64,000 nucleotides of DNA from Escherichia coli (GCF_030384885.1 NZ_CP128613.1); one strand, 5' to 3'. Positions 13,409 to 62,117 are shown, numbered from the stretch's first letter. The notes: generated by a model not told the origin, from the sequence alone. Numbers and translations: made by a program.

Positions 13409-13585
13409 TATGCCTTCACAATCAGATTGTCAATCCGCAGGCTTTGTAGTCTGCGATCCTGCCAGCAAATATTCTTTGCGAGACGTTACGCAATAATCAC
13501 ATGTGAAACTATTTTATCTGCAAGTTAGCGATAGACTGCTTGCATGGCGAAAGGAGGTAGGCCGCCGATTTCAGCGGGACGCTGA

Positions 13586-29761: not shown

Positions 29762-29800
29762 CAGTGTATTGGTAGCTAAAAAGCCAGGGGCGGTAGCGTG
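29762..29800 (+). promoter_or_regulatory. JUMPstart element with ops (RfaH-dependent antitermination) in the wza leader
   Basis: CAGTGTATTGGTAGCTAAAAAGCCAGGGGCGGTAGCGTG contains the ops core GGCGGTAGCGTG about 180 nt upstream of wza. Confidence 0.85.
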
Positions 29801-40185: not shown

Positions 40186-40187
40186 GC

Positions 40188-41153: not shown

Positions 41154-41155
41154 TG

Positions 41156-41635
41156 ATGTTTTTACGTCAGGAAGACTTTGCCACGGTAGTGCGCTCCACA
41201 CCGCTTGTCTCTCTCGACTTTATTGTCGAGAACAGTCGCGGCGAGTTTCTGCTTGGCAAAAGAACCAACCGCCCGGCGCAGGGTTACTGGTTTGTGCCGG
41301 GAGGGCGCGTGCAGAAGGACGAAACGCTGGAAGCCGCATTTGAGCGGCTGACGATGGCGGAACTGGGGCTGCGTCTGCCGATAACAGCGGGTCAGTTTTA
41401 CGGTGTCTGGCAGCACTTTTATGACGATAACTTCTCCGGCTCGGATTTTACCACGCACTATGTGGTGCTCGGTTTTCGCATCAGAGTAGCGGAAGAAGAG
41501 CTGTTACTGCCGGATGAGCAACATGACGATTACCGCTGGCTGACGCCGGACGCGTTGCTCGCCAGTGACAATGTTCACGCTAACAGCCGCGCCTATTTTC
41601 TCGCTGAGAAGCGTGCCGGAGTACCCGGATTATGA
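41156..41635 (+). CDS. gmm: GDP-mannose mannosyl hydrolase (Nudix)
   Basis: 159 aa from the second Met ([12 protein letters not shown]); Nudix-family fold. Confidence 0.9.
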
Positions 41636-42855
41636 AAATACTGGTCTACGGCATTAACTACTCGCCGGAGTTAACCGGCATCGGCAAATACACCGGCGAG
41701 ATGGTGGAATGGCTGGCAGCACAAGGTCATGAGGTGCGGGTAATTACCGCACCGCCTTACTACCCGCAGTGGCAGGTGGGCGAGAAATATTCCGCCTGGC
41801 GGTACAAACGAGAAGAGGGGGCCGCTACGGTGTGGCGCTGCCCGCTGTATGTGCCAAAACAGCCGAGCACCCTGAAACGCCTGTTGCATCTCGGCAGTTT
41901 TGCCGTCAGCAGTTTTTTCCCGTTGATGGCGCAACGTCGCTGGAAGCCGGATCGCATTATCGGCGTAGTACCAACGCTGTTTTGCACGCCGGGAATGCGC
42001 CTGCTGGCGAAACTCTCTGGTGCGCGTACTGTGCTGCATATTCAGGATTACGAAGTGGATGCCATGCTGGGGCTGGGCCTTGCCGGAAAAGGTAAAGCCG
42101 GCAAAGTGGCACAGCTGGCGACAGCCTTCGAACGTAGCGGACTGCATAACGTCGATAACGTCTCCACGATTTCGCGTTCGATGATGAATAAAGCTGTCGA
42201 AAAAGGTGTGGCGGCGGAAAACGTCATCTTCTTCCCCAACTGGTCGGAAATTGCTCGTTTTCAGCATGTCGCAGACGCCGATGTTGCTGCCCTTCGTAAC
42301 CAACTTGGCCTGCCGGATAACAAAAAAATCATTCTTTACTCCGGCAATATTGGTGAAAAGCAGGGGCTGGAAAACGTTATTGAAGCTGCCGATCGCCTGC
42401 GCGATGAACCGCTGATTTTTGCCATTGTCGGGCAGGGCGGCGGCAAAGCGCGGCTGGAAAAAATGGCGCAGCAGCGCGGACTGCGCAATATGCAATTTTT
42501 CCCGCTGCAATCGTATGACGCTTTACCCGCACTGCTGAAGATGGGCGATTGCCATCTGGTGGTGCAAAAACGCGGTGCGGCAGATGCCGTATTGCCGTCG
42601 AAACTGACCAATATTCTGGCGGTAGGCGGTAACGCGGTGATTACCGCAGAAGCCCACACAGAACTGTGGCAGCTTTGCGAAACCTTTCCGGGCATTGCGG
42701 TTTGCGTAGAACCGGAATCGGTCGAGGCGCTGGTGGAGGGGATTCGTCAGGCGCTCCTGCTGCCCAAACACAACACGGTGGCACGTGAATATGCCGAACG
42801 CACGCTCGATAAAGAGAACGTGTTACGTCAATTTATACATGATATTCGGGGATAA
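41632..42855 (+). CDS. wcaI: Colanic acid glycosyltransferase WcaI (GT1)
   Basis: 407 aa; N-terminus [24 protein letters not shown]; GT1/GT4 family. Confidence 0.92.
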
Positions 42856-42857
42856 TT

Positions 42858-44294
42858 ATGTCGCAGTCGAAACTCTATCCAGTTGTGATGGCAGGTGGCT
42901 CCGGTAGCCGCTTATGGCCGCTTTCCCGCGTACTTTATCCCAAGCAGTTTTTATGCCTGAAAGGCGATCTTACCATGCTGCAAACCACCATCTGCCGCCT
43001 GAACGGCGTGGAGTGCGAAAGCCCGGTGGTGATTTGCAATGAGCAGCACCGCTTTATTGTCGCGGAACAGCTGCGTCAACTGAACAAACTCACCGAGAAC
43101 ATTATTCTCGAACCGGCAGGGCGTAACACTGCACCTGCCATTGCGTTGGCGGCGCTGGCGGCAGAACGTCATAGCCCGGACAGCGATCCGTTAATGTTGG
43201 TCCTGGCGGCAGATCATGTGATTGCCGACGAAGACGCGTTCCGCGCCGCCGTGCGTAATGCCATGCCGTATGCCGAAGCGGGCAAGCTGGTGACCTTCGG
43301 CATTGTGCCGGATCTACCTGAAACCGGATATGGCTATATTCGTCGCGGTGAAGTGTCGGCGGGTGAGCAGGATACGGTGGCCTTTGAAGTGGCGCAGTTT
43401 GTCGAAAAACCGAATCTGGAAACCGCTCAGGCCTATGTGGCAAGCGGCGAATATTACTGGAACAGCGGCATGTTCCTGTTCCGCGCCGGACGTTATCTCG
43501 AAGAACTGAAAAAATATCGCCCGGATATTCTCGACGCCTGCGAAAAAGCGATGAGCGCCGTCGATCCGGATCTCGATTTTATTCGCGTGGATGAAGAAGC
43601 GTTTCTCGCCTGCCCGGAAGAGTCGGTGGATTACGCGGTCATGGAACGTACGGCAGATGCCGTTGTGGTGCCGATGGATGCGGGCTGGAGCGATGTCGGT
43701 TCCTGGTCCTCTTTATGGGAGATCAGCGCCCACACCGCGGAAGGCAACGTTTGCCACGGCGATGTGATTAATCACAAAACCGAAAACAGCTACGTGTATG
43801 CCGAATCTGGCCTGGTCACCACCGTCGGGGTAAAAGATCTGGTAGTGGTGCAGACCAAAGACGCGGTGCTGATTGCCGACCGTAACGCGGTGCAGGATGT
43901 GAAAAAAGTGGTCGAGCAGATCAAAGCCGATGGTCGCCATGAGCATCGGGTGCATCGCGAAGTGTATCGCCCGTGGGGCAAATATGACTCTATCGACGCG
44001 GGCGACCGCTACCAGGTGAAACGCATCACCGTGAAACCGGGCGAGGGCTTGTCGGTACAGATGCACCATCACCGCGCGGAACATTGGGTAGTGGTCGCGG
44101 GAACGGCAAAAGTCACCATTGACGGTGATATCAAACTGCTTGGTGAAAACGAGTCCATTTATATTCCGCTGGGGGCAAAACACTGCCTGGAAAACCCCGG
44201 GAAAATTCCCCTCGATTTAATTGAAGTGCGCTCCGGCTCTTATCTCGAAGAGGATGATGTGGTGCGCTTCGCGGATCGCTACGGACGGGTGTAG
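42858..44294 (+). CDS. cpsB: Mannose-1-phosphate guanylyltransferase (colanic acid copy)
   Basis: 478 aa; N-terminal nucleotidyltransferase motif [16 protein letters not shown] and C-terminal cupin domain. Confidence 0.95.
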
Positions 44295-44395
44295 TAGTTG
44301 AATAATCAACCGGAATAAATCTCCGGTAAATAACGACAAAAACAAAATTGGCCGTTTCGGTCAGGGCCAATTATTGCCTGAAAAAGGGTAACGAT

Positions 44396-45766
44396 ATGAA
44401 AAAATTAACCTGCTTTAAAGCCTATGATATTCGCGGAAAATTAGGCGAAGAACTGAATGAAGATATCGCCTGGCGTATTGGGCGTGCTTATGGCGAATTT
44501 CTCAAACCGAAAACCATTGTGTTAGGCGGTGACGTCCGTCTCACCAGCGAAACCTTAAAACTGGCGCTGGCAAAAGGGTTACAGGATGCGGGCGTTGACG
44601 TGCTGGATATCGGCATGTCCGGCACCGAAGAGATCTATTTCGCCACGTTCCATCTCGGCGTGGATGGCGGCATCGAAGTTACCGCCAGCCATAATCCGAT
44701 GGATTACAACGGCATGAAACTGGTGCGCGAAGGGGCTCGCCCGATCAGCGGTGATACCGGACTGCGCGACGTCCAGCGTCTGGCAGAAGCCAACGATTTT
44801 CCTCCCGTCGATGAAACCAAACGCGGTCGCTATCAGCAAATCAACCTGCGCGACGCTTACGTTGATCATCTGTTCGGTTATATCAACGTCAAAAACCTTA
44901 CGCCGCTCAAGCTGGTGATCAACTCCGGGAACGGTGCGGCGGGTCCGGTGGTGGACGCCATCGAAGCCCGCTTTAAAGCCCTCGGCGCACCCGTGGAATT
45001 GATCAAAGTACACAACACGCCGGACGGCAATTTCCCCAACGGTATTCCTAATCCATTGCTGCCGGAATGCCGCGACGATACCCGCAATGCGGTCATTAAA
45101 CACGGCGCGGATATGGGTATTGCCTTTGATGGCGATTTTGACCGCTGTTTCCTGTTTGACGAAAAAGGACAGTTTATCGAGGGCTACTACATTGTCGGCC
45201 TGCTGGCAGAAGCGTTCCTCGAAAAAAATCCCGGCGCGAAGATCATCCACGATCCACGTCTTTCCTGGAACACCGTTGATGTAGTGACTGCCGCAGGCGG
45301 CACCCCGGTGATGTCAAAAACCGGACACGCCTTTATTAAAGAACGTATGCGCAAGGAAGACGCCATCTATGGTGGCGAAATGAGCGCCCACCATTACTTC
45401 CGTGATTTCGCTTACTGCGACAGCGGCATGATCCCGTGGCTGCTGGTCGCCGAACTGGTGTGCATGAAAGGGAAAACGCTGGGCGAACTGGTGCGCGACC
45501 GCATGGCGGCATTCCCGGCAAGCGGTGAGATCAACAGCAAACTGGCGCACCCCGGTGAGGCGATTAATCGCGTCGAACAGCATTTTAGCCGCGAGGCGCT
45601 GGCGGTGGATCGCACCGATGGTATCAGCATGACCTTTGCCGACTGGCGCTTTAACCTGCGCTCCTCCAACACCGAACCGGTGGTACGCCTGAATGTGGAA
45701 TCGCGCGGTGATGTGCCGCTGATGGAAGCGCGAACGCGAACTCTGCTGACGTTGCTGAACGAGTAA
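44396..45766 (+). CDS. cpsG: Phosphomannomutase (colanic acid copy)
   Basis: Start at [17 protein letters not shown] gives 456 aa; active-site TASHNP and metal-binding DGDFDR. Confidence 0.95.
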
Positions 45767-45820
45767 TGTCGGATCTTCCCTTACCCCATTGCGGGTAAGG
45801 GGCTAATAACAGGAACAACG

Positions 45821-47215
45821 ATGACAAATCTAAAAAAGCGCGAGCGAGCGAAAACCAATGCATCGTTAATCTCTATGGTGCAACGCTTTTCAGATATCAC
45901 CATCATGTTTGCCGGGCTATGGCTGGTTTGCGAAGTCAGCGGACTGTCATTCCTCTACATGCACCTGTTGGTGGCGCTGATTACGCTGGTGGTGTTCCAG
46001 ATGTTGGGCGGCATCACCGATTTTTATCGCTCATGGCGAGGTGTTCGGGCAACGACAGAATTTGCCCTGCTGCTGCAAAACTGGACCTTAAGCGTGATTT
46101 TTAGCGCCGGACTGGTGGCGTTCAACAATGATTTCGACACGCAACTGAAAATCTGGCTGGCGTGGTATGGGCTGACCAGCATCGGGTTGGTGGCGTGTCG
46201 TTCGTGTATTCGCATTGGTGCGGGCTGGTTGCGTAATCATGGCTATAACAAGCGTATGGTTGCCGTGGCGGGGGATTTAGCTGCCGGGCAAATGCTGATG
46301 GAGAGCTTCCGTAATCAGCCGTGGTTAGGGTTTGAAGTGGTGGGCGTTTACCACGACCCAAAACCGGGCGGCGTTTCTAACGACTGGGCGGGCAATCTGC
46401 AACAGCTGGTCGAGGATGCAAAAGCGGGCAAGATTCACAACGTCTATATCGCGATGCAAATGTGCGACGGCGCACGAGTGAAAAAACTGGTCCATCAACT
46501 GGCGGACACCACCTGTTCGGTGCTGCTGATCCCCGACGTCTTTACCTTCAACATTCTCCATTCACGCCTCGAAGAGATGAACGGCGTTCCGGTGGTGCCG
46601 CTGTACGACACGCCACTTTCCGGGGTTAACCGCCTGATAAAACGTGCGGAAGACATTGTGCTGGCAACGCTGATCTTGCTGCTGATCTCCCCGGTGCTGT
46701 GCTGTATTGCGCTGGCGGTGAAATTCAGTTCACCAGGGCCGGTTATTTTCCGCCAGACTCGCTACGGCATGGATGGCAAGCCGATCAAAGTGTGGAAGTT
46801 CCGTTCCATGAAAGTGATGGAGAACGACAAAGTAGTGACCCAGGCGACGCAGAACGATCCGCGCGTCACCAAAGTGGGGAACTTTCTGCGCCGCACCTCG
46901 CTGGATGAATTGCCGCAGTTTATCAATGTGCTGACCGGGGGGATGTCGATTGTGGGGCCACGTCCGCACGCGGTGGCGCATAACGAACAATATCGCCAGC
47001 TCATTGAAGGCTACATGCTGCGCCACAAAGTGAAACCGGGCATTACCGGTTGGGCGCAGATTAACGGCTGGCGCGGCGAAACCGACACGCTCGAGAAAAT
47101 GGAAAAACGCGTCGAGTTCGACCTTGAGTACATCCGCGAATGGAGCGTCTGGTTCGATATCAAAATCGTTTTCCTGACGGTATTCAAAGGCTTCGTTAAC
47201 AAAGCGGCATATTGA
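45821..47215 (+). CDS. wcaJ: Undecaprenyl-phosphate glucose-1-phosphate transferase WcaJ
   Basis: 464 aa; N-terminal TM segments and C-terminal sugar-transferase domain (PGPVIFRQTRYGMDGKPIKVWKFRSM). Confidence 0.95.
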   Translation: MTNLKKRERAKTNASLISMVQRFSDITIMFAGLWLVCEVSGLSFLYMHLLVALITLVVFQMLGGITDFYRSWRGVRATTEFALLLQNWTLSVIFSAGLVAFNNDFDTQLKIWLAWYGLTSIGLVACRSCIRIGAGWLRNHGYNKRMVAVAGDLAAGQMLMESFRNQPWLGFEVVGVYHDPKPGGVSNDWAGNLQQLVEDAKAGKIHNVYIAMQMCDGARVKKLVHQLADTTCSVLLIPDVFTFNILHSRLEEMNGVPVVPLYDTPLSGVNRLIKRAEDIVLATLILLLISPVLCCIALAVKFSSPGPVIFRQTRYGMDGKPIKVWKFRSMKVMENDKVVTQATQNDPRVTKVGNFLRRTSLDELPQFINVLTGGMSIVGPRPHAVAHNEQYRQLIEGYMLRHKVKPGITGWAQINGWRGETDTLEKMEKRVEFDLEYIREWSVWFDIKIVFLTVFKGFVNKAAY

Positions 47216-47216
47216 T

Positions 47217-48695
47217 ATGAGCTTACGTGAAAAAACCATCAGCGGCGCGAAGTGGTCGGCGATTGCCACAGTAATCATCATCGGCCTCGGGCTGGTGCAG
47301 ATGACCGTGCTGGCGCGGATTATCGACAACCACCAGTTCGGTTTGCTTACCGTTTCGCTGGTGATTATCGCGCTGGCAGATACGCTTTCTGACTTCGGTA
47401 TCGCTAACTCGATTATTCAGCGAAAAGAAATCAGCCATCTTGAACTCACCACGCTGTACTGGCTGAACGTCGGGCTGGGGCTTGTGGTGTGTGTGGCGGT
47501 GTTTTTGTTGAGTGATGCCATTGGCGACGTGCTGAATAACCCGGACCTGGCACCGTTGATTAAAACATTGTCGCTGGCGTTTGTGGTGATCCCCCACGGG
47601 CAACAGTTCCGCGCGTTGATGCAAAAGGAGCTGGAGTTCAACAAAATCGGCATGATCGAAACCAGCGCGGTGCTGGCGGGCTTTACTTTTACGGTGGTTA
47701 GCGCCCATTTCTGGCCGCTGGCGATGACCGCGATCCTCGGTTATCTGGTCAATAGTGCGGTGAGAACGCTGCTGTTTGGCTACTTTGGCCGCAAAATTTA
47801 TCGCCCCGGTCTACATTTCTCGCTGGCGTCGGTGGCACCGAACTTACGCTTTGGTGCCTGGCTGACGGCGGACAGCATCATCAACTATCTCAACTCCAAC
47901 CTTTCAACGCTGGTGCTGGCGCGTATTCTCGGTGCGGGCGTAGCAGGGGGGTACAACCTGGCGTACAACGTGGCCGTTGTGCCGCCGATGAAACTGAACC
48001 CGATCATCACCCGCGTGTTGTTTCCGGCGTTTGCCAAAATTCAGGACGACACCGAAAAGCTGCGCGTTAACTTCTACAAGCTGCTGTCGGTGGTGGGGAT
48101 TATCAATTTTCCGGCGCTGCTGGGGCTGATGGTGGTGTCGAATAACTTTGTACCGCTGGTCTTTGGTGAGAAGTGGAACAGCATTATTCCGGTGCTGCAA
48201 TTGCTGTGTGTGGTGGGTCTGCTGCGTTCGGTGGGTAACCCGATTGGTTCGCTGCTGATGGCGAAAGCGCGGGTGGATATCAGCTTTAAATTCAATGTAT
48301 TCAAAACCTTTCTGTTTATTCCGGCGATTGTTATTGGCGGGCAGATGGCGGGTGCAATCGGCGTCACGCTTGGTTTCCTGCTGGTGCAGATTATCAACAC
48401 CATTCTGAGTTATTTCGTGATGATTAAACCGGTGCTCGGTTCCAGTTATCGCCAGTACATCCTGAGTTTATGGCTGCCGTTTTATCTCTCGCTGCCGACG
48501 CTGGTGGTTAGTTATGCGCTGGGCATTGTGCTGAAAGGGCAACTGGTGCTGGGGATGCTGCTGGCGGTGCAAATTATCGCAGGCGTGCTGGCGTTTGTGG
48601 TGATGATCGTGTTGTCGCGCCATCCGCTGGTGGTGGAAGTGAAGCGTCAGTTTTGTCGCAGCGAAAAAATGAAAATGCTTTTACGGGCGGGGTGA
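47217..48695 (+). CDS. wzxC: Colanic acid repeat-unit flippase WzxC
   Basis: 492 aa multi-TM polysaccharide-transporter-family ORF immediately after wcaJ. Confidence 0.93.
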   Translation: MSLREKTISGAKWSAIATVIIIGLGLVQMTVLARIIDNHQFGLLTVSLVIIALADTLSDFGIANSIIQRKEISHLELTTLYWLNVGLGLVVCVAVFLLSDAIGDVLNNPDLAPLIKTLSLAFVVIPHGQQFRALMQKELEFNKIGMIETSAVLAGFTFTVVSAHFWPLAMTAILGYLVNSAVRTLLFGYFGRKIYRPGLHFSLASVAPNLRFGAWLTADSIINYLNSNLSTLVLARILGAGVAGGYNLAYNVAVVPPMKLNPIITRVLFPAFAKIQDDTEKLRVNFYKLLSVVGIINFPALLGLMVVSNNFVPLVFGEKWNSIIPVLQLLCVVGLLRSVGNPIGSLLMAKARVDISFKFNVFKTFLFIPAIVIGGQMAGAIGVTLGFLLVQIINTILSYFVMIKPVLGSSYRQYILSLWLPFYLSLPTLVVSYALGIVLKGQLVLGMLLAVQIIAGVLAFVVMIVLSRHPLVVEVKRQFCRSEKMKMLLRAG

Positions 48696-48767
48696 ATAGT
48701 TGTTTTCGGTTCCGGCAACGAACACAACAAACACAGCCTCACCTGGCATCAAATTTATGAGGAAAAA

Positions 48768-50048
48768 ATGAAATTACTGATTCTGGGCAACCACACTTGC
48801 GGCAATCGCGGCGACAGTGCCATCTTGCGCGGCTTACTTGATGCCATCAATATCCTCAATCCACACGCCGAAGTGGACGTAATGAGCCGCTATCCGGTCA
48901 GTTCTTCCTGGCTGCTCAACCGTCCGGTAATGGGCGATCCGCTGTTCCTGCAAATGAAACAACACAACAGCGCGGCGGGTGTTGTCGGGCGCGTAAAAAA
49001 AGTCCTCCGTCGCCGCTATCAACACCAGGTACTGCTCTCACGCGTTACCGATACTGGCAAGCTGCGTAATATCGCCATCGCCCAGGGATTCACCGACTTT
49101 GTGCGCCTGCTGTCAGGTTACGATGCCATTATCCAGGTCGGCGGTTCGTTTTTTGTTGATCTCTACGGCGTGCCGCAGTTTGAACACGCGCTTTGCACTT
49201 TCATGGCGAAAAAGCCGCTGTTTATGATTGGTCACAGCGTCGGCCCGTTCCAGGATGAGCAATTTAACCAACTGGCAAACTACGTATTCGGGCACTGCGA
49301 CGCGCTGATCCTGCGCGAATCGGTCAGCCTGGATCTAATGAAACGCAGCAATATCACTACCGCAAAAGTTGAACATGGCGTCGATACCGCGTGGCTGGTC
49401 GATCACCACACCGAAGACTTCACCGCCAGCTATGCTGTTCAACACTGGCTGGACGTAGCCGCACAGCAGAAAACGGTGGCCATTACCCTGCGCGAACTGG
49501 CACCGTTCGACAAACGTCTCGGCACCACTCAACAAGCGTATGAAAAAGCCTTTGCCGGGGTGGTCAATCGCATTCTCGATGAAGGGTATCAGGTGATTGC
49601 GCTCTCCACCTGTACGGGCATCGACAGCTATAACAAAGACGACCGCATGGTGGCGCTCAACCTGCGTCAGCACATCAGCGATCCTGCCCGTTATCACGTG
49701 GTGATGGATGAACTCAACGATCTGGAAATGGGCAAAATCCTCGGTACCTGTGAACTCACCGTCGGTACGCGCCTGCACTCTGCCATTATCTCGATGAATT
49801 TCTCCACTCCGGCAATTGCCATCAACTACGAACATAAATCCGCCGGGATTATGCAGCAGCTGGGGCTGCAAGAGATGGCGATTGATATTCGCCATTTACT
49901 GGACGGCAGCCTGCAAGCGATGGTTGCGGATACCTTAGGCCAGCTTCCGGAGCTGAATACACGACTTAACGAAGCCGTCAGTCGCGAGCGCCAGGCAGGA
50001 ATGCAGATGGTGCAATCTGTGCTTGAGCGCATCGGGGAGGCGAAATGA
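48768..50048 (+). CDS. wcaK: Colanic acid pyruvyl transferase WcaK
   Basis: 426 aa; length and position as in K-12. Confidence 0.9.
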   Translation: MKLLILGNHTCGNRGDSAILRGLLDAINILNPHAEVDVMSRYPVSSSWLLNRPVMGDPLFLQMKQHNSAAGVVGRVKKVLRRRYQHQVLLSRVTDTGKLRNIAIAQGFTDFVRLLSGYDAIIQVGGSFFVDLYGVPQFEHALCTFMAKKPLFMIGHSVGPFQDEQFNQLANYVFGHCDALILRESVSLDLMKRSNITTAKVEHGVDTAWLVDHHTEDFTASYAVQHWLDVAAQQKTVAITLRELAPFDKRLGTTQQAYEKAFAGVVNRILDEGYQVIALSTCTGIDSYNKDDRMVALNLRQHISDPARYHVVMDELNDLEMGKILGTCELTVGTRLHSAIISMNFSTPAIAINYEHKSAGIMQQLGLQEMAIDIRHLLDGSLQAMVADTLGQLPELNTRLNEAVSRERQAGMQMVQSVLERIGEAK

Positions 50049-51265
50049 AGGTCGGCTTCTTTTTACTGAAATTTCCGCTGTCGTCGGAAACCTTCGTTCT
50101 CAACCAAATCACTGCGTTTATTGATATGGGCTTTGAGGTGGAGATTGTCGCGCTGCAAAAAGGCGATACGCAAAACACCCACGCGGCATGGACGAAATAT
50201 ACCCTTGCCGCCAGAACTCGCTGGTTACAGGACGAACCACAAGGCAAAGTGGCGAAACTGCGCCACCGCGCCAGCCAGACCTTACGCGGCATTCATCGTA
50301 AAAATACCTGGCAGGCGCTCAACCTCAAACGCTATGGTGCTGAGTCGCGGAACCTGATTTTGTCTGCCATTTGCGGCCAGGTCGCAACACCGTTTCATGC
50401 TGATGTGTTTATCGCACATTTTGGCCCAGCGGGGGTAACCGCAGCAAAACTACGGGAACTGGGTGTCATTCGCGGCAAAATCGCCACTATCTTCCACGGT
50501 ATTGATATCTCCAGTCGGGAAGTGCTCAACCATTACACTCCCGAATATCAACAACTGTTTCGCCGTGGCGACCTGATGTTACCGATTAGCGATCTGTGGG
50601 CCGGAAGGCTGCAAAAAATGGGCTGCCCGAGGGAAAAAATTGCCGTATCGCGCATGGGTGTAGACATGACGCGCTTTAGCCCGCGTCCGGTGAAAGCGCC
50701 CGCAACACCGCTGGAAATCATTTCCGTCGCACGCTTAACCGAGAAAAAAGGCCTGCATGTGGCGATCGAAGCCTGCCGTCAGTTGAAAGAGCAGGGCGTG
50801 GCATTTCGCTATCGCATCCTCGGCATTGGCCCGTGGGAACGACGCCTGCGCACCCTCATCGAACAATATCAACTGGAAGATGTGGTAGAGATGCCGGGCT
50901 TTAAACCGAGCCACGAAGTGAAGGCGATGCTCGACGACGCGGATGTCTTTCTGTTGCCATCGGTAACGGGTGCTGACGGCGATATGGAAGGCATTCCGGT
51001 GGCGCTGATGGAAGCGATGGCGGTCGGCATTCCGGTGGTTTCTACTCTGCATAGCGGAATACCGGAACTGGTGGAGGCCGATAAATCCGGCTGGCTGGTG
51101 CCTGAGAACGATGCTCGCGCACTGGCGCAACGACTGGCGGCGTTTAGCCAACTGGACACCGACGAACTTACTACGGTTGTCAAACGTGCGCGCGAAAAAG
51201 TCGAACACGATTTTAACCAGCAGGTGATTAACCGAGAACTCGCCAGCTTGTTGCAGGCTTTATAG
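50045..51265 (+). CDS. wcaL: Colanic acid glycosyltransferase WcaL (GT1)
   Basis: 406 aa; GT1 family; 4-bp overlap with wcaK. Confidence 0.92.
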
Positions 51266-51275
51266 AGGAGAACGC

Positions 51276-52670
51276 ATGCCATTTAAAAAACTCTCCCGAC
51301 GCACCTTCCTGACGGCAAGCTCGGTGCTTGCCTTCCTCCATACCCCTTTCGCCCGTGCAATTCCCGCTCAACAAAGCGTTAACATTAACGACTACAATCC
51401 ACATGACTGGATCGCTTCATTTAAACAAGCCTTCAGCGAAGGGCAAACGGTCGTCGTGCCTGGCGGATTGGTTTGCGACAATATCAACACCGGCATCTTC
51501 ATCCCCCCTGGCAAAACGTTACACATCCTGGGAAGCCTGCGCGGCAACGGCAGAGGGCGATTTGTCTTACAGGACGGCAGCCAGGTGACAGGGGAGAAGG
51601 GCGGCAGTATGCATAACATCACCCTGGATGTGCGCGGCTCTGACTGCACCATTAAAGGGCTGGCCATGAGCGGCTTTGGCCCGGTAACGCAGATTTATAT
51701 TGGCGGCAAAAACAAACGCGTCATGCGCAACCTGACCATCGATAACCTCACCGTTAGCCATGCTAACTACGCTATCTTACGGCAGGGATTTCATAATCAG
51801 ATTATTGGTGCCAACATCACCAACTGTAAGTTCAGCGACTTACAGGGCGACGCTATTGAATGGAACGTGGCGATTAACGACAGTGATATTTTGATATCCG
51901 ACCATCTCATTGAGCGCATTAACTGTACCAACGGCAAAATCAACTGGGGCATCGGCATAGGCCTTGCGGGAAGTACCTACGATAATAATTATCCGGAAAA
52001 CCAGGCAGTGAAAAACTTTGTCGTTGCGAATATCACGGGATCAGATTGTCGGCAACTGATCCATGTTGAAAATGGTAAACATTTTGTTATTCGTAATATC
52101 AAAGCCCGCAATATCACGCCGGATTTCAGTAAGAAAGCAGGCATTGATAACGCGACAGTTGCTATTTACGGTTGTGACAATTTCGTGATTGATAATATTG
52201 AAATGATTAATAGCGCCGGGATGTTAATCGGTTATGGGGTAATTAAAGGCAAATATCTCTCGATACCGCAGAATTTCCGAGTGAATAATATTCAACTGGA
52301 TAATACCCACCTTGCTTACAAATTGCGCGGCATCCAAATCTCCGCCGGGAATGCCGTCTCCTTTGTGGCACTGACTAACATTGAGATGAAGCGTGCCTCG
52401 CTGGAGCTTCACAATAAACCGCAACACCTTTTTATGCGCAATATCAAGGTGATGCAGGAATCCTCTGTTGGACCTGCATTGAGCATGAACTTCGACATGC
52501 GCAAAGACGTTCGTGGCGTGTATATGGCGAAAAAAGAAACACTGCTGTCTCTTGCAAATGTTCATGCGGTGAATGAAAGAGGGCAAAGCTCCGTCGATAT
52601 CGACAGGATTAATCACCATATTGTTAATGTGGAAAAGATTAACTTTAGATTGCCGGAACGGAGGGAGTAG
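51276..52670 (+). CDS. wcaM: Colanic acid biosynthesis protein WcaM (predicted secreted, pectate-lyase-like fold)
   Basis: 464 aa; signal-peptide-like N-terminus [21 protein letters not shown] (Tat-like RRTFL); last gene of the wca operon. Confidence 0.9.
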
Positions 52671-52844
52671 ATTTGCGACCATTCCTGGAAAAATGGAGCC
52701 ATACTTAGGAACAATGCTACTGCAATCCACAACGAAGCGGCGTAACATCACAAGTAATTCAGTAATCAATTCAGGGTAATTGATGCTGGCGAAAAAAATC
52801 GAACAAGCTATAATTCAGCAACCATTTTACAGGTGGATGAAATA

Positions 52845-53738
52845 ATGACGAATTTAAAAGCAGTTATTCCTGTAGCGGGTCTTGGGATGCATATGTTGCC
52901 TGCCACTAAGGCGATTCCCAAAGAGATGCTACCGATCGTCGACAAGCCAATGATTCAGTACATTGTTGACGAGATTGTGGCTGCAGGGATCAAAGAAATC
53001 CTCCTGGTAACTCACGCGTCCAAGAACGCGGTCGAAAACCACTTCGACACCTCTTATGAATTAGAATCTCTCCTTGAACAGCGCGTGAAGCGTCAACTGC
53101 TGGCGGAAGTGCAGTCTATCTGTCCGCCGGGCGTGACCATTATGAACGTGCGTCAGGGCGAACCTTTAGGTTTAGGCCACTCCATTTTGTGTGCACGACC
53201 CGCCATTGGTGACAACCCATTTGTTGTGGTATTGCCGGACGTTGTGATCGACGACGCCAGTGCCGACCCGCTGCGCTACAACCTTGCTGCCATGATTGCG
53301 CGCTTCAACGAAACGGGCCGCAGCCAGGTGCTGGCAAAACGTATGCCGGGTGACCTCTCTGAATACTCCGTCATCCAGACCAAAGAGCCGCTGGACCGCG
53401 AAGGTAAAGTCAGCCGCATTGTTGAATTTATCGAAAAACCGGATCAGCCACAGACGCTGGACTCAGACATCATGGCCGTAGGTCGCTATGTGCTTTCTGC
53501 CGATATTTGGCCGGAACTTGAACGAACTCAACCTGGCGCATGGGGACGTATTCAACTGACTGATGCCATTGCTGAACTGGCGAAAAAACAGTCCGTTGAT
53601 GCCATGCTGATGACTGGTGACAGCTACGACTGCGGTAAAAAAATGGGTTATATGCAGGCATTTGTGAAGTATGGACTACGCAACCTGAAAGAAGGGCCAA
53701 AGTTCCGTAAGAGCATTGAGAAGTTGCTCGGGGAATAG
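52845..53738 (+). CDS. galF: UTP-glucose-1-phosphate uridylyltransferase-like regulatory subunit GalF
   Basis: Start at [39 protein letters not shown] gives 297 aa. Confidence 0.95.
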
Positions 53739-53992
53739 ATCCAAGCCAATGTAACAATAATTTAGATAAATAGCGGCAGCTAACATCCCGGCGTCTATGC
53801 TTTAAACAAAGGAATGTTACTGTCGTTTTTCTTTTTAAAACAAAGAATAACAACGAGTTAACCTACTAAGTTTAATCTATTTTTTGTTGGATTTATCCTT
53901 GTTTCTGACAGCATTTGGTAAGACAATTGGCGTTTGAATTTAAGATAGCTTTGCGATAGCTAGCGGGGCGGAGTACATCTTTGGCATTTTGC

Positions 53993-54031
53993 TAGTGCAC
54001 TGGTAGCTGTTAAGCCAGGGGCGGTAGCGTG
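53993..54031 (+). promoter_or_regulatory. JUMPstart element with ops preceding the O-antigen cluster
   Basis: CTAGTGCACTGGTAGCTGTTAAGCCAGGGGCGGTAGCGTG, ops core GGCGGTAGCGTG, about 100 nt upstream of the first O-antigen gene. Confidence 0.85.
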
Positions 54032-54130
54032 GTAAGATTGTGTTTATATGATGCGTTCTCAAAATAAGAAATAATAATCCTGACTATCTTTATACTATTG
54101 ATAATATCTGAAATAAACTTAAGAGCAAAC

Positions 54131-55135
54131 ATGAAAGTAATTGTAAATAATTTTTTTGATGGTATTTTGAAAAGAGGAATACCGATCTATACTTCTGAAC
54201 TTGTGCAAAAGTTAAGAGACAATAATGTTCAGGTTATTTATGTTGCATGTCCAAAAGCATTCCATAAGCTGCCTTCATGGTTTCTGAATGTTCTTTTTAT
54301 AATAGTAGAGCAGCTTTTAATACCAATTATGGGTATATTTTATAGAACTAAGTATAATATATATCCCTATAATAGTAGTTCCATCATTGACTTGTTATTA
54401 GGTAAGGCAATTGTTATAATTCATGACTTCATTAGTCTTAAGAAAAATAAACGAAACCTTGCTGCCATTTATGTGAAAGTCTGTATTTATTTTTCATCTT
54501 TTTTAGCAAAGAAAGTAATATTTATTTCTCAAAGCACTCAGCGAGTATCTAAGAGAATATCGCTATTTAAGCGTATAGAATCTATCCTGCTCCCAAATCC
54601 ATTTTTCTCATTTGAGAAAATTGCTAATGTTACCGAAATAAAAGATCTTGGATATTTACTTCTAGTTTCAGGTTTAGGGGATAATAAGGATCTAGGCACA
54701 GCTCTGGACTATTATTTTTCAATCCCAAGGGAAGAAAGAATACCATTAAAAATATTAGGTTGTGGGAATGGTATTAGCAAGGTTAACGACTTAATTGATG
54801 GGCGGGATACAGATAAAGAAATTGAAATTATTGGTTTTGTTTCTTTAGAGGAAGTCGTCAAACTATATTGTAATTCTAAAATTGTTTGGGCTCATTCGCT
54901 TGCCGAGGGGTATGGCAGGACTTTAGCTGAAGCAAAACTCACATGCAAAAATGTTATATGCACACGGATCTCTGCTTTCCGCGAACAAAAGGATTCGAAT
55001 ATTTTCTTTTATACTTACTATTCTGAGTATTATGAAGTCTATTCATACTTGGTAGATAATTCACCCAGTGTCGAAAGGAAAGCTCTGCATGAACATATTT
55101 TATTTGAAAATGAATTGAGAAAGATTTATGAGTAA
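54131..55135 (+). CDS. O-antigen glycosyltransferase (GT1/GT4-like, possible mannosyltransferase)
   Basis: Track ORF 54098..55135 starts on a non-ATG codon; ATG at 54131 (MKVIVNNFFDG) is the likely start. C-terminal EX7E-like motif HSLAEGYGRTLAEA. Very AT-rich. Confidence 0.75.
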   Translation: MKVIVNNFFDGILKRGIPIYTSELVQKLRDNNVQVIYVACPKAFHKLPSWFLNVLFIIVEQLLIPIMGIFYRTKYNIYPYNSSSIIDLLLGKAIVIIHDFISLKKNKRNLAAIYVKVCIYFSSFLAKKVIFISQSTQRVSKRISLFKRIESILLPNPFFSFEKIANVTEIKDLGYLLLVSGLGDNKDLGTALDYYFSIPREERIPLKILGCGNGISKVNDLIDGRDTDKEIEIIGFVSLEEVVKLYCNSKIVWAHSLAEGYGRTLAEAKLTCKNVICTRISAFREQKDSNIFFYTYYSEYYEVYSYLVDNSPSVERKALHEHILFENELRKIYE

Positions 55136-56330
55136 TATTGATATAAATAAGAAACAGATATTAGTTTTGACTCCACGGTTCCCATTTCCTGTCATTGGTG
55201 GGGATCGATTACGTATCTATAAGATCTGTAAAGAACTGTCTAAGCATTATGATCTTACGTTGCTGAGTCTGTGTGATAAACGCGAAGAGCTCAACTATGA
55301 ATATGATCGTGAAGTTTTTAGTAGTGTTCACAGAGTATATCTTTCAAAGAAAAAATCTGTTTTAAATGTCATATTCTCTTTGTTTTCAAATACACCCCTA
55401 CAGATTGGGTATTATAAATCTAAAGAATTTGAAGATAAACTTAAGCAGTTATTACCTGAACATTCTGCAACTCTTTCACATTTGATAAGGGTTGGTGATT
55501 ATGTGAAAGAGAATAAAGATATAAATTTTTTAGAGATGACCGATGCCATTTCACTTAATTATAAACGAGTAAAGGAAAAAGCATCTTTATTGAGTTTAAA
55601 AACATTTGTATATTCTTTTGAACAAAAAAGACTCGAACGATATGAGCGAACTATAAATAACAAGTTCAGCTTGACTACTTTGGTATCACAGGTTGACTCC
55701 GATTATTTATATCCAGAGCGTCCGAATAATGTATTAGTTTGTGGAAATGGTGTTGATGCCGTTAGCTTACCTTTTTCAGAACGAAAAATAGCTAAAGATA
55801 AAAAGATAACCCTTGTATTTATAGGTAATTTATATTCTTTGCAAAATATGGATGGTGTGAGATGGTTCACCAAGGAAGTTTTACCATTTCTGAACAAGCA
55901 TGGTAATTTTGAATTTAAGGTCATCGGACGTATTACAGATAAAGATAAGAGTTGGTTAGAAAGCCAGCCTGGCGTTGTTGTCACAGGTGAAGTTGATAGC
56001 ATAACTTATGCAGCAGCTGATGGGCATATTGGTGTGTGTCCTATTAGATTAGGGGCAGGTATCCAAAATAAGGTACTTGAATATATGGCGTTGGGATTAC
56101 CTTGTATATCTTCTACTGTAGGCTTTGAAGGCTTGGGAGCAGAGGAGGGTAAGGAGATTTATGTTGCCAATACAAAAGAAGAATATTTACGTGTATTAAA
56201 TTATTTTATAACAAATCTGGATAAATATACCGAAACAGCATTAGTTGCGAAAAAGTTTATCGATGAGAATTTTTCATGGGAAGCTAAATTGAGCCCATAT
56301 ATCCAGAAAATTAAGGAGTCTGTTAAATAA
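55128..56330 (+). CDS. O-antigen glycosyltransferase (GT1/GT4 family)
   Basis: 400 aa; N-terminus [21 protein letters not shown] and C-terminal GT1 domain; AT-rich; overlaps the preceding gene by 8 bp. Confidence 0.8.
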
Positions 56331-56331
56331 A

Positions 56332-57747
56332 ATGATTATCCCAATTATTATGGCCGGTGGTTCTGGGACTCGCTTATGGCCTCTTTCGCGTTCGTTATAC
56401 CCGAAACAATTTTTATCATTGACTAATGAAAATAGTTTGCTCCAGGAAACGTTGAAGCGACTTGATGGATTAAATTGTTTGCCTCCTGTCATTGTTAGCA
56501 ATAATGAGCATAGATTTATTGTTGCTGAACAATTGCGACAGTTCGGTGTGGATGACTTCCAGATTATTCTAGAACCTGTAGGTAGAAATACTGCGCCCGC
56601 CGTTGCGCTGGCTGCTCTAAAGGCTCTGGAACTCCATGGCGATCATCATATGCTGGTTCTTGCTGCTGACCATGCTATTCAGGATATTGAAGCCTTCCAT
56701 GCAGCTGTTTTAGCTGCAGAACAAGAGTCCGTTGACAATAAGTTAGTGACTTTTGGCATCGTCCCGACCAAACCTGAAACTGGGTATGGCTATATTAAAA
56801 AGGGCGAACAAGTTAAAAACTCCGTATTTAAAGTAAATTCTTTCGTCGAAAAACCTGATTTAGAAACGGCTAAAAATTATCTCGAACAAAAATGCTATTT
56901 GTGGAATAGTGGTATGTTCATGTTCAAGGCGAGCGTATATTTAGATGAATTGAAAAAATTTCGCCCTGATATTTTAGCAGCGTGTAAAGAGTCGCTTTCC
57001 AGTGCTAGTACTGATCTAGATTTTATCAGATTAAATTCTGATGTCTTTGCAGAATGTCCCGATGAGTCAATTGATTATGCGGTAATGGAAAAAACTCAGG
57101 ATTGTGTAGTTATTCCACTTGATGCTGACTGGAGTGACATCGGATCATGGACATCACTTTGGGAAATATCAGAGAAAGATGAACATGAAAACGTATCGCA
57201 TGGTGATGTAATTAACTATAACAGCAGGAACAACTACATTTACTCTGAAGGTTCACTGATCAGCACTGTTGGAGTTAATAACCTTATTATAGTTCAAACT
57301 AAAGATGCGCTCCTGGTAGCACAGCAAGACAACGTACAAGACATAAAGAAAATTGTCGAAATTCTTAAAAAACAAAAACGTAGCGAACATATATCCCATC
57401 GCGAAGTCTATCGTCCTTGGGGACGTTATGATTCTGTAGAACGTGGCGACCGTTATCAGGTAAAACGTATTACCGTTAAGCCTGGTGAATGTCTCTCAAC
57501 ACAAATGCATCATCATCGAGCTGAGCATTGGGTGGTTGTCGCTGGTACTGCAAAGGTGACTTGCGGCGAACGCACTTATTTCGTCACTGAAAATGAGTCA
57601 ACTTTCATACCAATTGGCACAGTTCATACCTTGGAAAATCCAGGAAAGATACCATTAGAAGTAATTGAGATTCAGTCGGGTGTATATCTAGGTGATGATG
57701 ATATTGTGCGCCTAAGTGATAAATATGGTCGTGTTGAGGATAAATAA
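56332..57747 (+). CDS. manC: Mannose-1-phosphate guanylyltransferase (O-antigen copy)
   Basis: 471 aa; [16 protein letters not shown] nucleotidyltransferase motif and cupin C-terminus; paralogous to cpsB but with divergent AT-rich DNA. Confidence 0.93.
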
Positions 57748-57751
57748 TTAT

Positions 57752-59173
57752 ATGAATATTACCAATGATGTAATTAAAAATAGCGGAATTGCATTTGGTA
57801 CAAGTGGTGCTCGTGGATTAGTGAAAGATTTTACACCCAACGTGTGTGCTGCATTCACTTATGCTTTTATCGATGTAATGATGAAGGATTTTTCTTTTAA
57901 AGAGGTTGCGCTCGCAATAGATAATCGCCCAAGCAGCTATGCTATGGCACAAGCTTGCGCAGCAGCATTGTTGGAATGTAGTATTAAACCTATTTACTAC
58001 GGTGTAATTCCAACTCCAGCTTTGGCAAATCAAGCGATTGCCGATGGGATTCCTGCAATAATGGTTACTGGAAGTCATATTCCATTTGATAGAAATGGTT
58101 TGAAATTCTATCGTCCAGACGGGGAAATTTCAAAAGAAAATGAGAACAGCATTATACATGCTGAAAAAGAATATCCTGATGTAACTGTATTGCCAGAATT
58201 ACAATGTTCAAAGCGTGCCGCTGATACTTATATCGAGAGAAACACTTCAATTTTTTCAAATATATTTAAAGGTAAACGTATCGGGATTTATGAACATTCA
58301 AGTGCGGGACGGGATCTTTATCCAGAAATATTCAGTAAGCTTGGTGCTGAAGTTGTAAGTATTGGTAGAAGTGATGAGTTTGTGCCTATTGATACTGAAG
58401 CAGTATCAAAAGAAGATGAAGAAAAAGCTTTACACTGGTCATCTGAGTATGACCTCGATATGATTTTTTCTACCGATGGTGATGGCGATCGTCCTTTGGT
58501 TGCTGACGAAAATGGCGTTTGGTTACGGGGTGATATATTAGGACTATTTTGCTCAAAGGCAATGAATATTGAAGCGGTAGCTGTACCTGTAAGTTGTAAT
58601 ACGGTTATTCAGACCTGCGGGTGGTTTAATCATGTAACGCTGACTAAAATTGGTTCACCATACGTCATTTCAGCGTTTGATTCTCTGAATAATAGTTTTG
58701 ATAGTGTTGCAGGGTTTGAGGCTAACGGTGGGTATCTTTTAGGTAGCGATGTAAATTATAACAGCGGTATGATTAAAGCGCTTCCAACAAGAGATGCTGT
58801 TTTGCCTGCTTTAATGGTACTGGCACTGGCTATAAAAAATAATGTGACTATTTCAAAACTTTTGGCGGAGTTGCCACCACGATTTACCTATTCAAATAGA
58901 GTTCAAAATTTTGCAACAAGCAAAAGCAAAAGCATTATCGCGTCAGCTCAAGAAAATCCTCAAGAATTTATCGAAAGAATAGGCTTTGTCGACCTTCATG
59001 TACAATCGGTGGATACAATTGACGGGTTAAGATTGACACTAAGTGATGGTTCAATAATCCATTTGCGACCGTCAGGCAACGCACCTGAATTGCGATGCTA
59101 TGCAGAAGCAGATAACATAATAAAAGCTGAGAAATTAGTGTTAGAAATTTTGCATAAAGTTACTCTTTTGTAA
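57752..59173 (+). CDS. manB: Phosphomannomutase (O-antigen copy, PMM/PGM family)
   Basis: Track ORF from 57716; ATG at 57752 ([22 protein letters not shown]) is the likely start. Motifs [11 protein letters not shown] and DGDGDR. Confidence 0.88.
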
Positions 59174-59356
59174 AAAAATATAAACTTTTTTCTACTCTTG
59201 AGCGGTTTGTCATTGAACCGCTCAGTAATAGATTATTTTTAACTTGTTTATATTTAGCATTGGTGTTTTTATTTGCGTTCATCCCGAATAAGAGATTGTA
59301 AAATTAACTGTTTCTTGTTTTTCAAATGAGTTACTTCACTAGCAAAGCTAATTACT

Positions 59357-60688
59357 ATGCATAAGCAATATTATTCATTATTGTGCAATAAAATACAGTT
59401 TAAACATCTGGCTATATATTTTTCTGTATTTCTTTCACTATCCTCATGTTTCTTGTGGGGAGGGGCGGATACATTTGTATCGCAAGTGTATATTGATATT
59501 TTAGCCACTATATCTACAGCTCTATTAGTTATTTTGATGTTCTATTATTATATTAATAGAGTTCGCTATTTATCACTAACCTTACTTTTTGCATTCGTTT
59601 TTTCTTTGATTATTGGTTTGCCATCGATTTATCTTTACTATTTTAAAAACGCAAATCATGGGTTTGAAATAATTTGTATCTGGGGGATGTTGATCAATTC
59701 CATCCTTTACTTGCAAACAACAGAGACTGTCATAAAAGAAGAAAAAAGATATTTAACTAGTTTATTTTATATTTTGTTTTCTATTGTTGCACTGTGTCAA
59801 TTATGCAAAATATTAATTTATCTTATGTTTATATTGAATTCAGGAGAAGGGCATTTAGCAATTTATACTGAAAGCGAAGAATTGCTATCCCAAGTTCCAT
59901 TTTTTATTCGTGCTATTAGTGGTTTTGCAGTTGTAATGTCATTGTCCACTTTTTATTTTAAAACACCGACCTACATTAAAGTTATTGCATTTATTTTACT
60001 TGCATCTGATTTAGCTATTGGAATACGTAATAAGTTTTTCTTTTCAGTGATTTGTATTTTTATACTATATATGTACTCTAATGAGTATAGAGTAAGGAAT
60101 TTATTTAAGCAGCTCTCAAAACCAATATTTCTCATCGCGGGTTTTTTATGCTTCTCGATGGTATCGTATTTCCGTGAAGGGTACCAAATCGATTTTATGA
60201 ATTATATTGGCATTGTTTTAGATTCGCTATCCTCTACTCTTGGGGGGATGCAGAATTTGTTTGATATGCAATCATCAGGATGGGATCAACTTCATCCCGC
60301 TGTGGTATTCACACAAGTATTACCGCTAAGCGGTCTTGGTTTTCTTGATGATCAACAAATCGCAAAAGATTTTTCAATAATTGTTTTAGGTGATGTATCC
60401 TCTGGTATTGCGTTGTCATCTTCAGGATTGTTAGAGTCATCGTTGCTGAGTCTAAATTTGGGAGTGATTATTTATTTACTGTATTTATCAGGGGTGATGC
60501 TATTTATTAAATGGGGACTAAATAATCAACGGATAATAATAAACTTTGTTGCCATCTCCATGATATCTGGATTTTTTTATGCTGTTCGTGGTGAACTGAT
60601 TTTGCCATTGGCTTTTCTTCTAAAATCATTGCCGATTGTTCTTATATCTCCATTACTTGTTAAAAATAAAATTTATCATGGTCAGTAA
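59357..60688 (+). CDS. wzy: O-antigen polymerase Wzy (putative)
   Basis: 443 aa, highly hydrophobic multi-TM protein, very AT-rich, no recognisable enzymatic motif; start codon uncertain. Confidence 0.7.
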   Translation: MHKQYYSLLCNKIQFKHLAIYFSVFLSLSSCFLWGGADTFVSQVYIDILATISTALLVILMFYYYINRVRYLSLTLLFAFVFSLIIGLPSIYLYYFKNANHGFEIICIWGMLINSILYLQTTETVIKEEKRYLTSLFYILFSIVALCQLCKILIYLMFILNSGEGHLAIYTESEELLSQVPFFIRAISGFAVVMSLSTFYFKTPTYIKVIAFILLASDLAIGIRNKFFFSVICIFILYMYSNEYRVRNLFKQLSKPIFLIAGFLCFSMVSYFREGYQIDFMNYIGIVLDSLSSTLGGMQNLFDMQSSGWDQLHPAVVFTQVLPLSGLGFLDDQQIAKDFSIIVLGDVSSGIALSSSGLLESSLLSLNLGVIIYLLYLSGVMLFIKWGLNNQRIIINFVAISMISGFFYAVRGELILPLAFLLKSLPIVLISPLLVKNKIYHGQ

Positions 60689-60729
60689 GTGGTTTATTTT
60701 TCGACCAGGATCTCACCAGTAGGCATGAC

Positions 60730-61965: not shown

Positions 61966-62117
61966 TCAATGAGTCCTCTTTGAATAGAATTAGTTTGTTC
62001 TATTTATGAACACTTAGCTTGAGTAAGTTCTAACATAGATTACTAATTGTTTGATACTATCTGCTTTACAAGCATAACCGCGTATGTCGCGGTGACCACA
62101 CCTGACAGGAGTATGTA

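Follow-up and report, generated by a model that had tools for sequence, protein, structure and literature searches.

The window, a 64,000-nt stretch of Escherichia coli DNA, contains two gene pairs for GDP-mannose synthesis: cpsB-cpsG in the colanic-acid operon and manC-manB in the O-antigen operon. Very probably, each operon carries its own GDP-mannose genes, the O-antigen pair was acquired laterally and has stayed unconverted, the two pairs are too divergent to recombine and the arrangement is stable.

That the colanic-acid locus and the neighbouring O-antigen locus both contain GDP-mannose genes is textbook genetics in E. coli and Salmonella, and the layout of the window (colanic-acid cluster, galF, O-antigen cluster, gnd) is the standard E. 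coli order. The gene annotation was taken from RefSeq record NZ_CP027579.1, which is 100% identical to the window; NCBIfam and Pfam matches agree with it. The two manC/manB-type pairs were originally predicted to lie within about 14 kb. Both are indeed on the + strand, with 13,474 bp between the starts of cpsB and manC.

42858–44294, + strand: cpsB, mannose-1-phosphate guanylyltransferase / mannose-6-phosphate isomerase, 478 aa (NCBIfam NF012004, 1112 bits, cutoff 859; RefSeq)
44396–45766, + strand (RefSeq start): cpsG, phosphomannomutase, 456 aa (NCBIfam NF011943, CpsG, 1053.5 bits, cutoff 801)
45821–53738, + strand: genes opening the interval, with wcaJ, wzxC, wcaK, wcaL and wcaM, which close the colanic-acid operon, and then galF at 52845–53738 (RefSeq; galF TIGR01105, 686 bits)
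54131–56330, + strand: two O-antigen glycosyltransferase genes, 54131–55135 and 55128–56330, the second of the GT4 family (RefSeq)
56332–57747, + strand: O-antigen manC, 471 aa (TIGR01479, 756.6 bits, cutoff 372.95)
57752–59173, + strand (RefSeq ATG): O-antigen manB, 473 aa (four PGM_PMM Pfam domains above gathering scores)
59357–61965, + strand: wzy (59357–60688) and wzx (60730–61965), O17/O44/O73/O77/O106 family (RefSeq product names)

In the ORF list, cpsG begins at an upstream TTG (44348) instead of the RefSeq start at 44396. The manB start given earlier, 57716, is an in-frame upstream GTG and would make the gene overlap manC.

The guanylyltransferases of the two pairs are clearly related. 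CpsB matched TIGR01479 over its full length (810.9 bits, cutoff 372.95), and CpsB and the O-antigen ManC share the Pfam domain order PF00483 (NTP_transferase), PF22640 (ManC beta-helix) and PF01050 (MannoseP_isomer). Both are members of the bifunctional ManC/CpsB family TIGR01479, with predicted GDP-mannose pyrophosphorylase activity. Their BLASTP identity was 60% over 473 aa (E = 0.0).

The mutases are much less alike: BLASTP of CpsG against the O-antigen ManB gave 24% identity over 378 aa (E = 1e-08), and a global alignment gave 25.9%. CpsG has four PGM_PMM domains (I–IV) above the Pfam gathering scores, the TASHNP active-site loop, the metal-binding loop DGDFDR and the C-terminal phosphate-binding loop. 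The corresponding loops of ManB are a TGSHIP serine loop, a DGDGDR metal-binding loop and a C-terminal phosphate-binding loop. ManB scored 22.1 bits with the CpsG model NF011943 (cutoff 801), and no NCBIfam equivalog model reached its cutoff for this protein. The solved structures closest to CpsG were 5bmn/6nn2 (E about 5e-172), followed by the 1k35 type (E 6e-56). For ManB, the 1k35 type gave an E value of only 4e-06, and the closest structure was 4hjh, deposited as 'Phosphomannomutase' (E 9e-96, residues 10–463 aligned). ManB and 4hjh, a TGSHIP-type alpha-D-phosphohexomutase, have TGSHIP, DGD(G/A)DRP, GFEANGG and SGNAPELR in common; 4hjh is a homologue with a solved structure, linked to ManB by sequence.

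From these comparisons, the guanylyltransferases are homologous well beyond chance, and the homology of the mutases is real but remote: CpsG and ManB are assigned to the same alpha-D-phosphohexomutase superfamily and to different subfamilies within it. The description of the pairs as paralogues is overstated for the mutases. The motifs quoted for the two pairs were all present (GGSGxRLWPLSR in CpsB and ManC, TASHNP in CpsG, TGSHIP in ManB). That both pairs encode the same two enzymes, as had been proposed, is very probable, with ManB placed by homology. ManB is probably a phosphomannomutase, as suggested by its homology, the operon layout, the neighbouring manC in a mannose-containing cluster, its RefSeq name and the name of 4hjh.

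The original prediction went on to treat the pairs as direct repeats whose recombination could delete the DNA between them and fuse the capsule and O-antigen loci, or produce hybrid genes. The pairs have the same orientation and are 13.5 kb apart, and the mechanism is documented in other E. coli (see below). A crossover between cpsB and manC would delete both O-antigen glycosyltransferase genes. At the DNA level, codon-aligned cpsB and manC were 59.9% identical, with third positions at only 33.8%, and cpsG and manB were 38.6% identical. A megablast search between the two pairs gave no match, and the best blastn stretch had 73% identity over 164 bp. No stretch longer than about 20–30 bp was found in the pairwise comparison, which by the limit named with the prediction refutes it: the longest exact match measured 12 bp, as expected by chance (10–14 bp in 200 codon and 200 mononucleotide shuffles). 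For RecA/RecBCD recombination in E. coli, the minimal efficient processing segment is reportedly ~23–27 bp, a value ascribed to Shen and Huang in 1986, which exceeds this match. Between the pairs, the best direct repeat consists of these two copies:

43284–43340, + strand: cpsB copy, 57 nt, 77% identical to the manC copy, containing the 12-bp exact match TATGGCTATATT
56740–56796, + strand: manC copy, 57 nt, the PETGYGYI-coding stretch

Because chance would also give a match of 12 bp, sequence by itself does not single this repeat out. With a manB of another subfamily and a manC that is ~60% identical in DNA, RecA-dependent recombination between the pairs is not feasible.

The longest exact repeat between the two loci lies outside manC and manB, in the leaders of the two operons:

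29763–29800, + strand: JUMPStart with an exact ops site GGCGGTAGCGTG (29789–29800), 5' of wza (29979), marking where the colanic-acid transcription unit with cpsB-cpsG begins
53994–54031, + strand: JUMPStart with an exact ops site (54020–54031), leading the O-antigen operon

The ops element GGCGGTAGnnTG is exact at both leaders, before wza and before the first O-antigen glycosyltransferase gene. The two JUMPStart copies are 87% identical over 38 nt and share a 20-bp exact run. This 20-bp core is the longest exact direct repeat joining both loci, the manC/manB repeats being shorter, and this also speaks against the gene pairs as the substrate. The JUMPStart pair itself was rejected as a recombination substrate, since 20 exact bp are below the RecA-dependent requirement. 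Polysaccharide operons led by JUMPStart/ops are the RfaH-dependent class; both loci fit this operon type, and their RfaH dependence is predicted from the ops sites.

Related genomes were surveyed for hybrids or deletions by megablast of manC-manB against 5,426 complete RefSeq genomes. The pair was found in 93 of them, always at 100% coverage, and no partial, hybrid or deleted manC or manB gene occurred among these 93 genomes; deletions that also remove wzy/wzx, or rough variants unrecognisable as members of the O77 group (defined below), could escape such a search. An intact colanic-acid cluster preceded manC-manB in 93/93 genomes, and 92 of them retained 80% or more of the 17.5-kb arrangement. 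The 93rd genome, apparently SCU-482, is a frameshift-ridden assembly with unchanged gene order and without a deletion. Two candidate hybrids were rejected. The only partial matches, 53 bp long, fell in a gene labelled 'cpsB' in 60 genomes; this gene is the O75 O-antigen manC, which is chimeric in its own right and does not derive from the O77-group pair. A 537-bp 'manC' fragment of strain IH5 (96.6% identical to cpsB) lies among scrambled gene fragments and is an evident assembly artefact. With a chance-level match, mutase genes that are this dissimilar and no deletion or hybrid in 93 genomes, the proposed role of the pairs as a recombination substrate is extremely improbable.

The deletion mechanism is nevertheless genuine and published, but limited to cpsG-like manB genes at ~95% identity, as in REL606, O14 and O157. 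In E. coli B REL606, the ancestor of the long-term evolution experiment (LTEE), manB and cpsG are 96% identical; seven recombination deletions are described, and 10 of the 12 LTEE populations lost the region (Raeside et al. 2014, PMC4173774). As in the window, cpsG and the O-antigen manB of REL606 are in direct orientation, with the colanic-acid end and O-antigen genes between them. The difference lies in the copies, which recombine repeatedly in REL606 and offer no usable homology in the window (38.6% in DNA, ~25% in protein). In the O14 type strain, recombination between manB copies (manB/manB) removed the O-antigen cluster (PMC7685785). This is exactly the predicted fusion of the capsule and O-antigen loci, but it requires a cpsG-like O-antigen manB, and no equivalent deletion was seen in the 93 O77-group genomes. 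In O157, the O-antigen manB and part of manC were converted by cpsG/cpsB (PMC3158064).

Two further strains served as positive controls. The O-antigen manB was 96.6% identical to the strain's own cpsG in O80, with a 104-bp exact run, and 94.9% identical in O75, with a 170-bp exact run. O157, O80 and O75 resemble the window in that the same two enzyme genes are duplicated between adjacent loci. They differ in that their manB is 95–97% identical to cpsG, with a GC content of 0.54 and exact runs of 104–170 bp, whereas the O77-group pair is unconverted and of low GC throughout. Recombination-prone repeats of the REL606, O14 and O157 kind are marked by near-identical DNA (~95% over ~1.3 kb) and by exact runs much longer than ~25 bp, and the pairs of the window do not have these properties. 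Both the two-pair arrangement and recombination between near-identical copies are already known biology.

The O75 manC raises a second alternative, in which the PETGYGYI-coding stretch (57 nt, 77%, 12 bp exact) is the site of an occasional short-homology crossover, and cpsB-cpsG could over evolutionary time replace the 3' part of the O77-group manC together with manB, as apparently happened in O75. In the 60 genomes carrying it, the O75 manC is of low GC (0.377) from nt 1 to ~440 and then 93% identical to cpsB, with a cpsG-like manB next to it. The switch falls exactly at the PETGYGYI-coding motif, where a 28-bp exact run is shared with the manC of the window. The chimera thus indicates a crossover inside manC at this conserved motif at least once, so rare short-homology events are possible. 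No such event was found in the 93 O77-group genomes, the 12-bp match does not stand out from chance, and the ancestral O75 manC may have resembled cpsB at the junction more than the O77-group manC does. For the cluster of the window, we consider such an exchange very unlikely.

The reading that the O-antigen pair is a lateral acquisition is supported by composition and by strain comparisons. The GC content was 0.402 in manC and 0.381 in manB, compared with 0.559 in cpsB and 0.551 in cpsG. The predicted AT bias was even clearer in GC3, at 0.322 and 0.262 for manC and manB vs 0.630 and 0.635 for cpsB and cpsG. The pair lies in the O17/O44/O73/O77/O106 ('O77-group') cluster of E. coli 2013C-4282; the product names of wzy and wzx fix this serogroup family. 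Positions 54000–62000 matched the distant strains 042 and O17_K12a at 99.3% identity, and positions 41000–53500 at only 93–97%; the core region 1171–27282 was ~95% identical to strain 042. Against O17_K12a and others, the cluster was 99.3% identical over 8.4 kb, above the 99% identity to O17/O44 reference strains expected of an O77-group cluster, and its gene order was identical to that of strain 042 and an O17 reference strain. The separate origin that had been suggested for the pair is supported by its low GC and GC3, the 24–26% amino acid identity of the mutases and this cross-strain pattern. The step from 99.3% in the cluster to 93–97% in the flanks shows lateral mobility, and the O-antigen cluster was very probably acquired laterally, with an origin separate from that of the colanic-acid genes.

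The O77-group clusters (Wang et al. 2007), which Liu et al. review in FEMS Microbiol Rev (PMC7685785), are more than 99% identical to each other, with a common Man-Man-Man-GlcNAc backbone. Their gene order is the one found here: galF, two glycosyltransferases, manC, manB, wzy, wzx and gnd. Because this backbone is mannose-rich, manC and manB are needed. The allele of the window differs by ~0.7% from the nearly uniform allele of the other genomes, and the chromosome around it is more divergent.

Taken together, cpsB-cpsG are part of the native high-GC colanic-acid operon, where GDP-mannose feeds gmd and fcl towards GDP-fucose, and manC-manB are part of the low-GC O77-group operon, whose repeat unit has three mannoses. 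A separate JUMPStart/ops leader per operon points to independent expression of the two pairs, as the operon layout suggests. Independent expression of each operon is the accepted reason for GDP-mannose gene redundancy. The O-antigen pair very probably came in laterally as part of the complete cluster, from a presumed donor, and has never been overwritten by the colanic-acid copies, unlike the pairs of O157, O75 and O80 and that of the E. coli B O7 cluster.

A more speculative thought, which we hold to be unlikely, is that the O77-group cluster, owing to its divergent TGSHIP-type manB and its unconverted low-GC manC, may be 'recombination-proof' against cpsG/manB deletions, by which O antigens with a cpsG-like manB are readily lost, or, alternatively, that the PETGYGYI-coding motif may be a recurrent site of short-homology crossovers at which cpsB converts manC, as in the O75 chimera. 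If the cluster were 'recombination-proof', selection for O-antigen stability would help to keep the divergent type.

Beyond correct annotation, the importance of the arrangement is small. What is of use is a specific negative result: neither naming nor typing should treat the O-antigen manB here as cpsG-like, and loss of the O-antigen through recombination of the cpsG/manB type is not expected.

The window is 100% identical to positions 390857-454856 of the E. coli 2013C-4282 chromosome (NZ_CP027579.1). Two gene starts were corrected according to RefSeq: manB begins at the ATG at 57752 rather than the GTG at 57716, and cpsG begins at 44396.

Main features of the window
left part: mdtABCD-baeSR region
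from 29979 (wza) to 52670 (end of wcaM): complete colanic-acid cluster
39064-41153: gmd and fcl
42858-44294: cpsB
44396-45766: cpsG (RefSeq start)
52845-53738: galF
3' of galF: O-antigen cluster of the O17/O44/O73/O77/O106 family (O77-group), with two glycosyltransferase genes, manC, manB, wzy and wzx
56332-57747: O-antigen manC
57752-59173: O-antigen manB (RefSeq ATG)
62118-63524: gnd; the window stops in the spacer beyond

Profile models or Pfam domains confirmed all four genes of the two manC/manB-type pairs. Against TIGR01479 (cutoff 373 bits), the cpsB product scored 811 bits and the O-antigen manC product 757 bits. Both have the same architecture (NTP_transferase, beta-helix, isomerase), 60% amino-acid identity and the expected motif GGSG(S/T)RLWPLSR. 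The mutase motifs quoted at the outset were also found, with TASHNP in CpsG versus TGSHIP in ManB. The AT bias of the O-antigen pair was evident: the GC content was 0.40 (manC) and 0.38 (manB) vs 0.56 (cpsB) and 0.55 (cpsG), and GC3 was 0.32 and 0.26 vs 0.63 and 0.635.

Both mutases contain four PGM_PMM domains. Their identity was 24% in BLASTP (E = 1e-08) and 25.9% in a global alignment, and the CpsG model gave 1053 bits for CpsG and 22 bits for O-antigen ManB. The nearest solved structures of CpsG were 5bmn/6nn2 (E about 5e-172), followed by the 1k35 type (E 6e-56). For ManB, the nearest was 4hjh (E 9e-96), deposited as 'Phosphomannomutase' and sharing TGSHIP, DGDxDRP, GFEANGG and SGNAPELR with it, and the 1k35 type reached only E 4e-06. 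The low identity, the gap in CpsG-model scores and the different nearest structures place them in two subfamilies of the alpha-D-phosphohexomutase superfamily that are remote relatives by sequence, and they rule out a recent duplication as the source of the two mutases. The ManB type is not unique to the O77-group, since ~232 further complete E. coli genomes have homologues with 63-67% nucleotide identity, annotated as phosphomannomutase. In the clinical isolate MZ1211 (locus L005, NZ_CP169035.1, 4421-7035), IS5 is inserted in the O77-group manB; this strain would either be rough or obtain its GDP-mannose through CpsG or some other mutase.

The original prediction regarded the pairs as a potential recombination substrate unless identical stretches longer than ~20-30 bp were lacking. 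Megablast of pair against pair gave no match, and the best blastn stretch was 73% over 164 bp. The codon-aligned identity was 59.9% for cpsB and manC (33.8% at third positions) and 38.6% for cpsG and manB. The longest exact match across the pairs was 12 bp (TATGGCTATATT, at 43329 and 56785), which is chance level: 200 codon and 200 mononucleotide shuffles gave longest matches of 10-14 bp. The recombination reading is refuted by the criterion of the original prediction and is wrong for this locus. Mismatch repair strongly suppresses recombination at such divergence, and efficient RecA-dependent recombination in E. coli reportedly takes ~23-27 bp of perfect identity, a figure said to go back to Shen and Huang in 1986.

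The mechanism itself is genuine and already published for other loci. In REL606, manB and cpsG are 96% identical; seven independent recombination deletions were described, and 10 of 12 populations of the long-term evolution experiment (LTEE) lost the region (PMC4173774). In the O14 type strain, the two manB genes recombined and the O-antigen cluster was thereby lost, according to Jensen and Reeves 2004 as related in PMC7685785, and the O157 manB was converted by cpsG (PMC3158064). As positive controls, the O-antigen manB and the strain's own cpsG shared 96.6% identity and an exact run of 104 bp in an O80 strain, and 94.9% identity and an exact run of 170 bp in an O75 strain. In contrast to these near-identical genes, manB and cpsG of the window have no such run.

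Among the 5,426 complete E. coli genomes surveyed, manC-manB of the O77-group type was present in 93, always at a coverage of at least 80%; the coverage was 100% in all 60 matches listed. No partial matches occurred among the 93 genomes (60 listed individually). At least 80% of the 17.5-kb wcaI-wzy stretch was present in 92 of the 93. The exception is apparently SCU-482, which gave the weakest match of all 93; its assembly is frameshift-ridden, but the gene order is unchanged. The deletions or hybrids of the pairs to be looked for in related genomes were found in none of these 93 complete genomes. The 'complete' genome of IH5 (locus L006, NZ_CP168949.1) holds a 28-kb patchwork of truncated gene fragments that derive from all parts of the chromosome; one of them is a 552-bp piece of cpsB under the name manC. 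The patchwork appears to be an assembly artefact, and artefacts of this kind could mislead hybrid-gene surveys.

In 60 complete genomes, the first ~440 nt of the O75 O-antigen manC have a low GC content (0.377); beyond this point, the gene matches cpsB at 93% identity, and a cpsG-like manB comes next. An example is strain HKUOPY1 (locus L010, NZ_CP019961.1, 26437-29314), whose manB and cpsG gave the O75 control values of 94.9% and 170 bp and where RefSeq names the genes cpsB and cpsG, though both are within the O-antigen cluster. The switch point lies in the PETGYGYI-coding stretch, which is also the best cpsB/manC repeat in the window (57 nt, 77% identity, 43284-43340 and 56740-56796). As the O75 manC is chimeric, judging by its sequence, crossovers within manC have happened in evolution, but none was found in the 93 O77-group genomes.

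The separate origin of the O-antigen pair was supported. Positions 54000-62000 were ~99.3% identical to strain 042 (O44) and an O17 strain, while the identity to both was 93-97% in the colanic-acid genes (41000-53500) and dropped to 92.6% in gnd (62500-63000). The core region from mdtABCD-baeSR to asmA (1171-27282) was ~95% identical to 042. Since flanks and core are lower, the cluster including manC and manB has been transferred laterally as one unit, with breakpoints near JUMPStart and within gnd, outside manC and manB.

The chromosomal backbone at 1171-27282 is unusually divergent. In 5,182 of the 5,426 complete E. coli genomes, the identity to the mdt-bae segment was only 90-95%; the best match reached 98.3%. 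The host may be a divergent Escherichia lineage, e.g. a cryptic clade. Upstream of 1171, the window did not align with 042; positions 1-1082 encode a HEAT-repeat domain protein in the place where 042 holds yegQ and its neighbours. The stretches 12978-13690 and 14564-15325 cover three Ibs-family type I toxin genes in tandem in the mdtA-yegL interval, and pphC, which the annotation treats as a pseudogene carrying an internal stop. For the cpsB-cpsG allele (42858-45766), the best listed match in other complete genomes was ~96%, and none of these genomes was at least 99% identical. The cpsB-cpsG spacer is 101 bp, compared with ~192 bp in O17_K12a and other strains. Such longer spacers probably carry REP elements of the kind described in PMC3158064.

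The pairs sit in two separate operons. An exact ops element within JUMPStart precedes each cluster: GGCGGTAGCGTG occurs at 29789-29800 upstream of wza and again at 54020-54031 upstream of the first O-antigen glycosyltransferase gene. The JUMPStart copies (29763-29800 and 53994-54031) are direct repeats of 38 nt with 87% identity and lie 24.2 kb apart. Their 20-bp core is the longest exact direct repeat linking both loci and exceeds any in the man genes. Overall, the observation of two pairs and their separate origin hold, and the proposed recombination substrate at the O77-group locus does not; the arrangement is ordinary and already well described. In colanic acid synthesis, GDP-mannose is the precursor of GDP-fucose via gmd and fcl, and the operon is under Rcs control, with little expression at 37 C. 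The accepted reason for a second pair is that the O antigen needs GDP-mannose constitutively while the colanic-acid operon is mostly silent. The O77-group O antigen has this need because its repeat unit holds the backbone Man-Man-Man-GlcNAc (PMC7685785).
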